NCBI GenBank assembly: GCA_023392945.1
Contig: JAEWNB010000136.1
Coordinates: 3,050-67,049, forward strand
Direction: 5' to 3'
Length of the DNA: 64,000 nt
Source: Bacteroidota bacterium
Lineage (GTDB): Bacteria > Bacteroidota > Bacteroidia > Bacteroidales > WCHB1-69
This document shows positions 34,966 to 38,577 of the stretch, in pieces (the first letter of the stretch is position 1; each line of letters begins with the position of its first letter). Below the pieces are notes generated by a model. It was given only the letters and a program-made list of their open reading frames with translations, was not told the DNA's origin and did not search any database. The translations under genes were made by a program, and so were the position numbers.

Positions 34966-35013
34966 AACAATAAAATTTAATCGACAAAAATAGTAAAAAA
35001 ACAATCAATGGGG

Positions 35014-35053
35014 AAAAATAAAAAAACCTTATTTCCGTAATGAAATAAGGTTT
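35014..35053 (-). terminator. rho-independent terminator immediately after rpsS
   Basis: 11-bp stem aaccttatttc / gaaataaggtt (35025-35035 and 35042-35052). On the minus strand it is followed by a T-run (plus-strand A-run 35015-35026). It ends the shortened S10-type operon. Confidence 0.6.
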
Positions 35054-35106
35054 ATAAAACATTCGACCGACAAATATTGCCGATAAATCAGGACAAAAAG
35101 AAGAAA

Positions 35107-35385
35107 TTACTTTTTCCCTTTATCTTTCTGACCTGCATGACCTCTAAAAATACGTGTAGGAGAAAATTCACCCAATTTATGACCTACCATATTTTCGGTA
35201 ATATAAACAGGGATAAACTTATTTCCATTATGAACAGCAATATTTAAGCCAACAAAATCAGGGGTAATAACAGAAGCTCTGGACCAGGTTTTAAGAGTAA
35301 CTTTTTTTCCAGATTTTTGAGCTTCGAGAACTCTTTGTTCAAGTTTATAATGAATATAGGGACCTTTTTTTAATGAACGACTCAT
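35107..35385 (-). CDS. rpsS: 30S ribosomal protein S19
   Basis: 92 aa. [11 protein letters not shown]...[23 protein letters not shown]. Confidence 0.97.
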
Positions 35386-35405
35386 ACTTTTTTAATCTTT
35401 AAAAA

Positions 35406-36230
35406 TTATTTCTTCCTTCTTTCGATAATATATTGATCAGAATTTTTCTTAGGAGCTCTGGTTTTGTATCCTTTTGCTGGCAAACCTTTTCTGGAGCGTG
35501 GGTGACCACCGGAAGCACGGCCTTCACCACCACCCATTGGGTGATCAACAGGATTCATAACAACGCCACGAACTCTTGGACGACGACCTAACCAACGGGA
35601 TCTACCGGCTTTACCGGAAATCTCCAAACTATGGTCAACATTAGAAACCATTCCGATAGTAGCTCTGCAACTGCAGAGAATCATTCTCGTTTCGCCGGAA
35701 GGCATTTTAATTACGGCATATTTTCCCTCTCTGGACATTAATTGAGAATAAGAGCCAGCGCTACGGGCCATTTTAGCACCCTGACCCGGGCGAAGTTCTA
35801 TATTGTGAATTACTGAACCGAAAGGAATTTCACCTAAGAATAGCGTATTTCCCAAATCAGGAGAAACACCTGCGCCTGAGATAATCTGTTGTCCCACTTT
35901 AATTCCGTGAGGAGCAATGATATAACGTTTTTCGCCGTCAGCATAAAACAATAAAGCGATACGTGCAGATCTGTTAGGATCATACTCGATACTCTTTACT
36001 ACTGCGGGAATTCCGTCTTTATCTCTTTTAAAATCAATAAAACGATACATCTTCTTGTGACCGCCTCCGCGATACCGCATCGTCATTTTACCACTATTGT
36101 TACGTCCGCCGGTTTTGGGATTCGGACAAAGTAAACCCTTTTCAGGATTATTGGTGGTAATTTCGTCAAAAGCGCTAATTACTTTAAAGCGCTGACCTGG
36201 TGTAACCGGTTTGTACTTTTTTAATGCCAT
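35406..36230 (-). CDS. rplB: 50S ribosomal protein L2
   Basis: 274 aa. [14 protein letters not shown]...[13 protein letters not shown]. Confidence 0.97.
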
Positions 36231-36233
36231 TTT

Positions 36234-36524
36234 TTAAATACTACTATAAAAATCAATCTTTTCTTCTTTACTAACGAATACCATAGCTTTTTTCACAGTG
36301 TTCTTCTGTCCGGTAATCATACCTGCTTTGGTGTAGCGGGATGACTCTTTTCCTCTTTGTATTAAGGTATTTACCTGAAGGACTTTCACACCGTATAATT
36401 CTTCAACCTCTTTTTTAATTTGGGTTTTAGTAGCCGTTCTGACAACAATGAATCCATAGCGATTATATTTTTCCGCCATTTGGGTCATTTTTTCACTTAT
36501 AATGGGCTTTATTAATACGTTCAT
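36234..36524 (-). CDS. rplW: 50S ribosomal protein L23
   Basis: 96 aa. Position between L4 and L2; sequence typical of L23. Confidence 0.9.
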   Translation of the reverse strand: MNVLIKPIISEKMTQMAEKYNRYGFIVVRTATKTQIKKEVEELYGVKVLQVNTLIQRGKESSRYTKAGMITGQKNTVKKAMVFVSKEEKIDFYSSI

Positions 36525-36548
36525 TTCAATATAAATTATTAACGATTA

Positions 36549-37184
36549 TTATTCTTTTTCTCCTAACATTCTCTCAATGTCCGGAATACTGTTTTCGCAA
36601 ATAATAAGATTACTTGCATTCAATACGTCATAGGTATTTACGTCAGAAGCTCTGATAACTTTTGCACGTTTTAGATTTCTTGAAGAGATAAAAACATTTT
36701 GATTGGATTCATTGGCCAACAATAAAGTTTTTTTATCATCAAGATTAAAATGTTTCAAAATATCGAGATATGCTTTCGTTTTAGGAGTATCAAAGGCGAA
36801 ATCTTCAATAATGAGGATTTTATCTTCCTTTGCTTTGTATGAAAGAGCAGAAAATCTGGCAAGACGTTTGATTTTCTTATTCAGTTTAAAGCTATAATCT
36901 CTGGGATGAGGGCCGAAAACAGTAGCACCACCTCTGATAGTAGGAGATTTAATACTACCGGCACGAGCGCCTCCGGTTCCTTTTTGTTTTTTTAGCTTTC
37001 TGGTACTTCCGGAGATCGTAGATTTTTCCAAAGTATCGTGGGTTCCTTGTCTTTGATTGGCTAAATAATGTTTAACATCAAGCCAAATTGCGTGATCATT
37101 AGGTTCAACATTAAAGATTGAATCGTTTAATGTAACCGATTTTGTAGATTCACTTCCGTCTATTTTATATACTTTTAACTCCAT
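36549..37184 (-). CDS. rplD: 50S ribosomal protein L4
   Basis: 211 aa. [17 protein letters not shown] motif. Overlaps the rplC end by 10 nt. Confidence 0.95.
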
Positions 37185-37804
37185 CTTTCAATAATTATAT
37201 ATGAACCACTAGGTCCTGGAACGGAACCTTTAACTAAAATCAAATTTTTTTCTTGTACAATTTTCAAGATTTGGAGATTGATCATTTTAACTTTATCTCC
37301 TCCGGTTCTTCCTGCCATACGCATTCCCGGCATAACTCTTGAAGGCCATGAAGAAGCACCTAAAGAACCAGGAGCTCTAAGCCTGTTATGTTGACCGTGA
37401 GTAGAGTCGCCAACACCACGAAAATGGTGACGTTTCACAACCCCTTGAAAGCCTTTCCCTTTGGAAACACCGCTAACATCAACAAATTCACCTTCAATGA
37501 AAATAGTAACATCCAGAATATCTCCGAAATATTTTCTATGACCTGCTTCAAAACGGGTAAATTCTTTTAAGATTTTCTTTGGGGTTATCCCTGCTTTTGC
37601 AAAGTGACCCATCAATGGCTTAGATGTCTTGCTTTCTTTCTTTTCATCATAAGCCAATTGGATCGCTTCATAACCATCTTTCTCGATGGTTTTAACTTGC
37701 GTAACAACGCAAGGACCAGCTTCCAACACCGTGCATGGAATTATCTTTCCATTGGCACCATAGATGCTAGTCATACCAATTTTTTTTCCTATTAATCCAG
37801 ACAT
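37175..37804 (-). CDS. rplC: 50S ribosomal protein L3
   Basis: 209 aa. [13 protein letters not shown]...[13 protein letters not shown]. Confidence 0.97.
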
Positions 37805-37936
37805 TTTTTGATTTGATTTATAATATTTATACTGTCTTTTTTCAATTTAAGTTTTTAGGACTTTCCTCACAACTTTCTAAAAATAAACATTTTGAACTAC
37901 TTCTCCAACAATCCTTTGTTCATAATAAAAAGTCGG

Positions 37937-37944
37937 CAAATATA
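37937..37944 (-). promoter_or_regulatory. -7 promoter box (TATATTTG on the minus strand) for the rplC operon, inside the left arm of a 19-bp inverted repeat
   Basis: Plus-strand caaatata is TATATTTG on the minus strand. It is embedded in AAAAAGTCGGCAAATATAC (37927-37945). Confidence 0.5.
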
Positions 37945-38141
37945 CAAAATTATTTATACATAATACTCTATGCATCGATTTTGATTTTTTTTTATTCATT
38001 CCGGTTAATCATATATAATAATATTGTATAAAACAAAATGAAAGATGTTCCCCAAAAATAAAAACAAGCAGAAATCTTCTATTGTTGAAATAAAAAAATA
38101 AAAAAAATAACTCAAGTTGCGATTTATATAAAAAATAAATG

Positions 38142-38149
38142 TACATTTG
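38142..38149 (+). promoter_or_regulatory. -7 promoter box (TACATTTG) for the rpmD-rplQ operon, inside the right arm of the same inverted repeat
   Basis: GTACATTTGCCGACTTTTT (38141-38159) is the reverse complement of 37927-37945 with 1 mismatch. Confidence 0.5.
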
Positions 38150-38363
38150 CCGACTTTTTGAAGTGAAATAAGTTAAAAGTACAAAGAGCTCAGAGAACAA
38201 ACGCAACTACTTGATTTCACGGACTATATAAAAAACAGATGGAACAGTGCAGGGGAATTCTTAATAGTTTAATGTGAAAAAAATAGGTTGCAATTAATAC
38301 AAAATGATTGCAATTTGTATTTTATGGAGAAAAAAAAGTGAAATATATACATATTATAATAGG

Positions 38364-38543
38364 ATGAAAAAGATTAAAATTACCCAAGTTAGAAGTGCTA
38401 TTGACAGACCGGCACGCCAAAAAAGATCACTTCAGGCATTAGGTCTGAAAAAAATGCATCATTCAGTTGAACACAATGCTACTCCTCAAATTTTAGGAAT
38501 TGTTGATTCCATTAAACATTTGTTGCAGACAGAAGAAATTTAA
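38364..38543 (+). CDS. rpmD: 50S ribosomal protein L30
   Basis: Internal start of the track ORF. MKKIKITQVRSAIDRPARQKRSLQALGLKK... (59 aa). Confidence 0.93.
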   Translation: MKKIKITQVRSAIDRPARQKRSLQALGLKKMHHSVEHNATPQILGIVDSIKHLLQTEEI

Positions 38544-38577
38544 CCCGATTATTAATCAGTATTTGAAATTAGATAAG

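Follow-up and report, generated by a model that had tools for sequence, protein, structure and literature searches.

The ribosomal-protein supercluster is cut into separately located blocks throughout a clade of uncultured Bacteroidales

The region from RpsL to RplQ, which comprises the str, S10, spc, and alpha gene groups, has been described as highly syntenic across bacterial phyla, including the Bacteroidetes (PMC7214798). Here, we describe a stretch of 64,000 nt (the window; positions 3050 to 67049 of contig C4, JAEWNB010000136.1) from a Bacteroidales genome of the WCHB1-69 lineage, in which this supercluster is interrupted: the rplC-rpsS and rpmD-rplQ blocks diverge from a common spacer and the genes that would normally connect them are located elsewhere. 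The most probable explanation, and one we hold with considerable confidence, is a clade-level fission of the supercluster into independent promoter-terminator modules, which were later shuffled and two of which were joined head to head. The cuts at rpsS/rplV and rpsE/rpmD are an old, inherited trait of a clade to which roughly three in four known species of the family belong, and the head-to-head placement of rplC and rpmD is recent and specific to the genome studied here (G000) and its sister species (G001). The assembly of G000 is a metagenome bin of 2.33 Mb in 210 contigs with an estimated completeness of 95%.

The ribosomal genes of the window were identified by NCBIfam equivalog models, all scoring above their curated cut-offs, together with the list of open reading frames (ORFs). 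On the minus strand, the first block extends from 37804 down to 35107 and contains rplC (37175-37804), rplD (36549-37184), rplW (36234-36524), rplB (35406-36230), and rpsS (35107-35385). The opposing block on the plus strand (38364-44758) is composed of rpmD (38364-38543), rplO (38578-39066), secY (39109-40452), map (40458-41249), infA (41263-41484), rpmJ (41500-41616), rpsM (41649-42023), rpsK (42060-42449), rpsD (42542-43147), rpoA (43194-44189), and rplQ (44195-44758). Between them lies a spacer of 559 bp (37805-38363) with a GC content of 24%. A sequence-only reading of this DNA had described the same two divergent blocks and the AT-rich spacer, and had noted that rpsJ does not precede rplC and that rplV to rpsE are missing from the window; the gene models and the ORF list confirm all of these coordinates and both absences.

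The missing genes are present once each in other parts of the assembly, where that reading had advised looking for them. The str unit rpsL-rpsG-fusA-rpsJ occupies positions 22892-26303 of contig C90 and is followed by a putative terminator, consisting of a GC-rich hairpin and a T-run, and by the convergent gene mgsA, encoding methylglyoxal synthase. The 13 genes from rplV to rpsE are found on the minus strand of contig C202 (13239-18861), with a gene for a KdsC-type phosphatase upstream and a gene for a TonB-dependent receptor downstream. Both blocks are many kilobases away from the contig ends. There is one copy each of rpsJ, rplV to rpsE, rplC, and rpsS in the genome, no gene is duplicated, the full set of ribosomal-protein genes, secY, and rpoA is present, and the gene order inside each segment is canonical. 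Rather than a single collinear rpsJ-to-rplQ array on one strand, the supercluster consists of four pieces on at least three contigs (C90, C4 with two divergent pieces, and C202), separated at rpsJ/rplC, rpsS/rplV, and rpsE/rpmD. The earlier estimate that at least three breakpoints are needed to derive this layout from the canonical order is borne out now that the missing pieces have been located.

The cuts are shared by many relatives. We located rplC, rplO, and rplV in 40 related genomes and inspected 1.5 kb on each side. The canonical order, with fusA-rpsJ-rplC...rpsS-rplV and rpsE-rpmD, is found in eight genera of the family and in the other sampled families of the order. In eleven genera, rplV is not preceded by rpsS and rpmD is not preceded by rpsE, despite more than 1.2 kb of upstream sequence. 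In a maximum-likelihood tree of eight concatenated proteins (1551 columns), all genomes with the rpsS/rplV and rpsE/rpmD cuts form one clade of 17, with a long stem and a value of 100 in the Shimodaira-Hasegawa-like approximate likelihood ratio test (SH-aLRT). At the scale of the family, we surveyed 152 species genomes from 22 genera, and both rpsS and rplV could be located in 137. The two genes are adjacent in 35 of these (9 genera) and non-adjacent in the remaining 102 (13 genera), and no genus is mixed. For 79 of the 102 non-adjacent genomes, the contig continues past the gene for at least 700 nt on the relevant side, and in four genomes rpsS and rplV lie on one contig at distances of 12.5 to 659 kb. 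The closed genome of a relative (G161; 3.5 Mb) carries rplO at 0.152, rplV at 1.582, and rpsS at 2.242 Mb, so that its blocks are 0.66 to 1.4 Mb apart. Outside the clade, in a broader sample of Bacteroidota, rplV adjoins rpsS at every locus that extends past rpsS.

The sequence-only reading had conceded that the arrangement would be a known lineage trait, rather than a novelty, if close relatives commonly shared exactly the same layout. This concession applies to the cuts, given that rpsS/rplV and rpsE/rpmD are separated in the whole clade and rpsJ/rplC in most of it, but it does not extend to the exact divergent juxtaposition of rplC and rpmD, which is restricted to G000 and G001 among the 41 genomes. 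As the three breakpoints are a lineage trait, the novelty of the individual genome is lowered accordingly. Among named records, the nearest are metagenome bins that carry the labels 'Bacteroidales bacterium' or 'Lentimicrobiaceae bacterium' and were recovered from the gut of termites, the rumen of yak and sheep, and the faeces of horses.

Each block carries sequence signals that would allow it to function on its own. For rplC, the putative promoter TGTATATTTGCCGACTTTTT (37927..37946, minus strand) includes a -7 box, TATATTTG (37944-37937), 140 nt before the gene; for rpmD, the corresponding sequence TGTACATTTGCCGACTTTTT (38140..38159, plus strand) includes the box TACATTTG (38142-38149), 222 nt before the gene. 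A box of the form TATATTTGCCGAC recurs ahead of rplC, at -138 to -143, in 11 of the 12 genomes compared. Before rpmD, TATATTTGCCGACTTTTTgAAGTGAAAT stands at -167 to -270, mostly at about -217 to -225 (16 genomes), and TATTTTTGCCGCCAATTTGAA is found at -99 to -115, or about -104, before rplV in all 15 relatives examined. The ends of all four blocks display terminator-like hairpins. Downstream of rpsS, a terminator scan recovered a 12-bp stem (35053-35024) followed by TTTTTATTTTT (35013..35053, minus strand), and a 15-bp stem with a T-run is located downstream of rplQ (44780..44822, plus strand). At the end of rpsE on C202, a hairpin followed by T9 was recognized by eye, and the rpsJ hairpin on C90 has been mentioned above. 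Because the boxes are found at near-fixed distances and a terminator-like hairpin stands at each end, these features support the view that the fragments act as independent and stable operons. The neighbourhood of the blocks is far less constant: when the 1.3 to 1.5 kb that precede rplC, rpmD, and rplV in the relatives are placed on G000, they fall on different contigs almost every time, and the neighbours have therefore been reshuffled repeatedly. A rearrangement path that would join rplC and rpmD could not be inferred from the congeners, in every one of which the upstream neighbours differ. A promoter scan in the style of sigma-70 was likewise uninformative, with 11 sites compared to 13.7 expected; the Bacteroidota consensus differs from the pattern that it employs.

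We return to the sequence-only reading, in which the break was considered functional rather than accidental. The hairpin and T-run that it described downstream of rpsS, and the TAnnTTTG boxes that it assigned to both ribosomal blocks, are all present, the latter at distances conserved in relatives. The recurring junction, the single-copy pieces, and the conserved boxes and terminator-like hairpins point in the same direction. Taken as a series of events, the ancestor of the clade would have possessed a contiguous str-S10-spc-alpha supercluster, which was cut at rpsS/rplV and at rpsE/rpmD, and most of the clade would have acquired an additional cut between str and S10, either at rpsJ/rplC, as is the case here, or at fusA/rpsJ, as in some genera. 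The fragments may then have become independent transcription units, each running from a TAnnTTTG promoter at a constant distance upstream, through a long 5' leader, to an intrinsic terminator, and the intact modules would have been shuffled around the chromosome, leaving different neighbours in different genomes. In the lineage of G000 and G001, a later rearrangement presumably brought the modules rplC-rpsS and rpmD-rplQ into a head-to-head position, such that they would now share a divergent control region of 559 bp in which the two promoters form an inverted repeat.

This inverted repeat has arms of 33 nt that are 79% complementary, surrounds an AT-rich inter-promoter segment of 193 bp (37947..38139), and contains a core, TGTAYATTTGCCGACTTTTT, that matches at 19 of 20 positions. 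A third copy of the promoter sequence in G000 is found 203 nt before the operon secE-nusG-rplK-rplA-rplJ-rplL (C8:579-3760). We searched the 18-mer TAYATTTGCCGACTTTTT in the 41 genomes, allowing one mismatch at most and using the reversed 18-mer as a control. One to four copies are present in 13 of the 17 genomes of the split clade, with three copies in every member of the genus, and the 18-mer heads the rplC, rpmD, and secE-nusG-rplK operons. At the same threshold, it was not found in four split-clade genomes (G010, G016, G018, and G019) or in the canonical genomes of the family; outside the family, there was one copy in a single genome of another family, and the reversed control gave zero to one matches. 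In two genera (G007 and G023), infA is split from map and is headed by an identical 18-mer, TATATTTGCCGACTTTTT, 145 to 161 nt upstream. A match to the rpmD promoter region, at C13:10152-10179, was discarded, as it corresponds to the generic A/T-rich upstream part of the promoter of an unrelated gene. Two near-identical copies of TATATTTGCCGACTTCGGAAT (C56:530 and C186:2273) precede an ORF of 128 aa in a locus that is duplicated on two short contigs; there, the 128-aa ORF and the long ORF before it lie on one strand and overlap at the 3' end of the latter, so that the box is located inside the upstream coding frame.

The secE operon also differs in its surroundings. In canonical genomes of the family, secE directly follows tuf and tRNA-Trp, and a -7 box is lacking. 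The split-clade genomes examined no longer have tuf and tRNA-Trp at this position, and in most of them a box of the TATATTTGCC type precedes secE by about 200 nt. The clade has therefore undergone a broader fission of operons for translation genes. The promoter shared by several heads may have arisen when a cassette was copied, by homogenisation, or because the heads converged on a promoter that is strong or regulated. One tentative possibility, to which we give less than even credence, is that a cassette of about 30 nt, (T)GTAYATTTGCCGACTTTTTnAAGTGAA, comprising the promoter and the initial transcribed region, replaced the control provided by co-transcription with a shared cis element that was copied to, or homogenised among, the heads of secE, rplC, and rpmD (and infA in two genera) as a common regulatory handle. 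Such a cassette could serve as a discriminator of the growth-rate or stringent type, or as the site of a dedicated factor.

From the box positions, we would expect transcripts with long leaders: about 130 nt for rplC (37805..37931, minus strand), a length conserved across genera, about 210 nt for rpmD (38155..38363, plus strand), and about 95 nt for rplV. None of these leaders matched an Rfam family. At gathering thresholds, the whole window yielded two tRNAs elsewhere only, and a search of positions 34900-38700 with E-values of up to 10 returned nothing credible. RNAalifold predicted no consensus base pairs, and no covariation, for the rpmD, rplC, and rplV leaders (15 to 16 sequences each). 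In the window, the rpmD leader contains a terminator-like hairpin, formed by AGGTTGCAATTA and TGATTGCAATTT and followed by GTATTTTAT (38285..38328, plus strand). A comparable hairpin with a T-run that ends 44 to 67 nt before the rpmD start codon is present in 7 of the 16 genomes compared, compared to about one expected and a maximum of three in 100 mononucleotide shuffles, and is a weak candidate for an attenuator. The spacer also contains an ORF of 40 aa (37877-37999, minus strand), which has been called in other assemblies, overlaps the -7 box of rplC, and has no family hit on record; this ORF is probably spurious.

Several observations weigh against the fission of the supercluster into modules as set out above, or complicate its history. 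The 210-contig bin leaves C4, C90, and C202 unplaced relative to each other, and the promoters, leaders, and terminators have been recognized by sequence motifs and their conservation. Most of the split clade lacks rpsJ before rplC, yet this cut maps to no single branch of the tree: fusA-rpsJ-rplC is kept in G010 and G018, whereas in G016 and two termite-gut genomes the cut lies at fusA/rpsJ, with a promoter box before rpsJ. In the one genome that departs from the common spacing (G015), the rplC box is at -97, and not at about -140. Because the rpsJ/rplC cut cannot be assigned to one branch, more than one break has evidently occurred at this junction, unless the tree is wrong at this point. 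In another, unrelated Bacteroidales lineage, which includes 'Candidatus Minthomonas equi' and bins labelled Rikenellaceae, rpsJ is likewise missing before rplC and rpsS-rplV is kept, which suggests that the rpsJ/rplC junction was broken there independently.

A more basic objection concerns the assembly itself, as contig C4 could be chimeric at the spacer, or the pieces could derive from different organisms. The fragmentation of the bin and the AT-rich composition of the spacer are compatible with such an artefact, as are three Logan contigs (SRR8925806, SRR8925774, and SRR25925547) that begin exactly 1 nt before the start codon of rplC (37805), although these ends may also mark a branch in the assembly graph caused by strain variation, or a drop in coverage at the AT-rich sequence. 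Against this, the rplC/rpmD junction is spanned by contigs that an exact-protein look-up of L3 retrieved from four further accessions of samples or runs, the products of at least three assembly pipelines as judged by contig naming. Those from ERZ28596802 (a scaffold of 69.9 kb), Logan SRR13358419, and ERR1193300 are identical to the window over the compared stretch, and an 8-kb MEGAHIT-style contig from ERZ27298653 that runs through rpmD/rplC as well as rpsS/panB has 99.77% identity (11 mismatches and one gap). In addition, G001 has a matching divergent junction, with identities of 97.7% in the flanking genes and 94.1% in the spacer, and also shares the KdsC-rplV junction. The other pieces, all present in single copy and complementary in gene content, likewise have G001 as their closest relative, and the closed genome of G161 has matching cuts. 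Because the junction recurs in contigs of four accessions and in G001, a chimeric join is effectively excluded, and an error of assembly or binning is the explanation to which we attach the least probability. Recent scrambling confined to this genome is scarcely more credible. It would agree with a head-to-head junction that is present in only two of 41 genomes, but not with cuts at rpsS/rplV and rpsE/rpmD that are common to the 17-genome clade, and to 102 of 137 species genomes in the case of rpsS/rplV, nor with promoter-box distances conserved across genera. For the cuts, this reading is refuted, and it holds only for the juxtaposition.

The divergent spacer itself invites two further interpretations. 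If it were the origin of replication (oriC), the arrangement could be the product of inversions symmetric about the origin, and the cumulative GC skew of the window is indeed lowest at about 37 to 38 kb, where the two operons diverge. This minimum (-2.30) is not unique, however, as the skew drifts down again after 46 kb and reaches -2.27 at 58 to 59 kb, and the local dip is explained by the coding-strand bias of two highly expressed operons. Moreover, no DnaA box (TTATCCACA, one mismatch at most) is present in the 559-bp spacer, including the 193-bp inter-promoter part, the counts across the window are at chance level, and gene orientation further to the left is mixed, which together leave an origin at this site very improbable. 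Even less can be said for an invertible, phase-variable segment that would switch both operons. Invertible promoters are common in Bacteroidales, and the inverted repeat around the 193-bp segment offers the arms for such an event. However, the -7 boxes are located in the arms and face outward, so that they would stay in place if the inner part were flipped; all spanning contigs and G001 are collinear; and in other genomes the motif heads unlinked operons without a partner arm. We consider this reading highly unlikely.

Several known systems help to place the split supercluster. Compared to the canonical str-S10-spc-alpha arrangement of Escherichia coli, Bacillus subtilis, and Bacteroides, which extends from rpsL to rplQ, the gene set is the same, in single copy, and the order within each fragment is retained, whereas here there are four units on at least three contigs, two of them divergent. 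The cuts do not follow the operon borders of E. coli; instead, two of them interrupt the S10 operon, downstream of rpsJ and of rpsS, and the third interrupts the spc operon downstream of rpsE. Rearrangements of this region have been surveyed in 204 genomes of another phylum, where 65% of them did not disrupt the operons, spc and alpha stayed together in every case, and some branches showed bursts of events. Lineage-specific loss of concatenation, multi-event bursts on single branches, and conserved new neighbourhoods are shared with the present case, and the split is a phenomenon of the same kind in another phylum. In our case too, rpmD-rplO-secY stays with alpha, but rplN to rpsE are detached and S10 is cut in the middle of the operon; the recurrent promoter and the cuts inside the classical S10 and spc operons are features that the survey does not have. 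We found no report of this split of the supercluster in Bacteroidales in the literature.

In archaea, cyanobacteria, and plastids, rpsJ is associated with the str genes (rpsL-rpsG-fusA/tuf) and is separate from rplC. The same holds true here, where rpsJ ends the unit rpsL-rpsG-fusA-rpsJ ahead of the putative terminator, but this layout arose independently inside the Bacteroidales, and sister genera are cut at fusA/rpsJ instead. The housekeeping promoter of Bacteroidota is defined by a -33 TTTG and a -7 TAnnTTTG element. Each block head likewise has a TAnnTTTG box after an A/T-rich stretch; however, three to four of the heads share a far longer, clade-specific sequence, TAYATTTGCCGACTTTTT(n)AAGTGAA, which continues into the presumed initial transcribed region. 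Similar to the E. coli S10 leader, which mediates attenuation through L4, and to other ribosomal-protein leaders, the predicted leaders are long (100 to 220 nt), and a terminator-like hairpin recurs among those of rpmD. In contrast to these leaders, there is neither an Rfam match nor a consensus structure, and membership in a known leader family is not supported. Most ribosomal-protein leaders of E. coli are reported to be restricted to Gammaproteobacteria (PMC3616713).

The remaining features of the window lie at and beyond the edges of the two blocks. The first non-ribosomal gene on the 3' side of rpsS is panB (34144..34965, minus strand), which encodes 3-methyl-2-oxobutanoate hydroxymethyltransferase and was identified by NCBIfam models TIGR00222/NF001452 above the cut-off. 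Its start codon is the ATG at 34965, and the independent contigs have a gene call of 273 aa. A separate -7-type box for panB, as claimed by the sequence-only reading, can be read from the sequence as TATTTTTG (34985..34992, minus strand), ends 19 nt before the start codon, and is a candidate promoter element. The L17 protein encoded by rplQ is 187 aa long, with an acidic C-terminal tail rich in Ala, Glu, Thr, and Pro, and scores 151 bits against the NCBIfam model 'L17, sunset domain variant', below its cut-off of 280. A compositionally distinct region at 53835-57982 has a GC content of 44-48%, compared to about 35% elsewhere, and contains two minus-strand ORFs of 1043 and 339 aa.

Few gene orders in bacteria are as conserved as the array from rpsL to rplQ, and its contiguity is often assumed when bins are anchored or marker sets are chosen. 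A whole clade of gut-associated, uncultured Bacteroidales, represented by 102 of 137 scorable species genomes, nevertheless has cuts at positions internal to the classical S10 and spc operons. In practical terms, the arrangement described here is real and inherited, and is neither an assembly error nor unique to one genome. As each fragment has a conserved promoter, the cuts are evidently stable and tolerated, and the clade offers a natural test of how the stoichiometric synthesis of ribosomal proteins is achieved without co-transcription. We consider the shared promoter cassette, as a regulatory handle that might replace co-transcription, to be the most interesting point raised by this arrangement. 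If this proposal is true, the cassette would turn an operon into a small regulon, and it provides an element that is directly testable.

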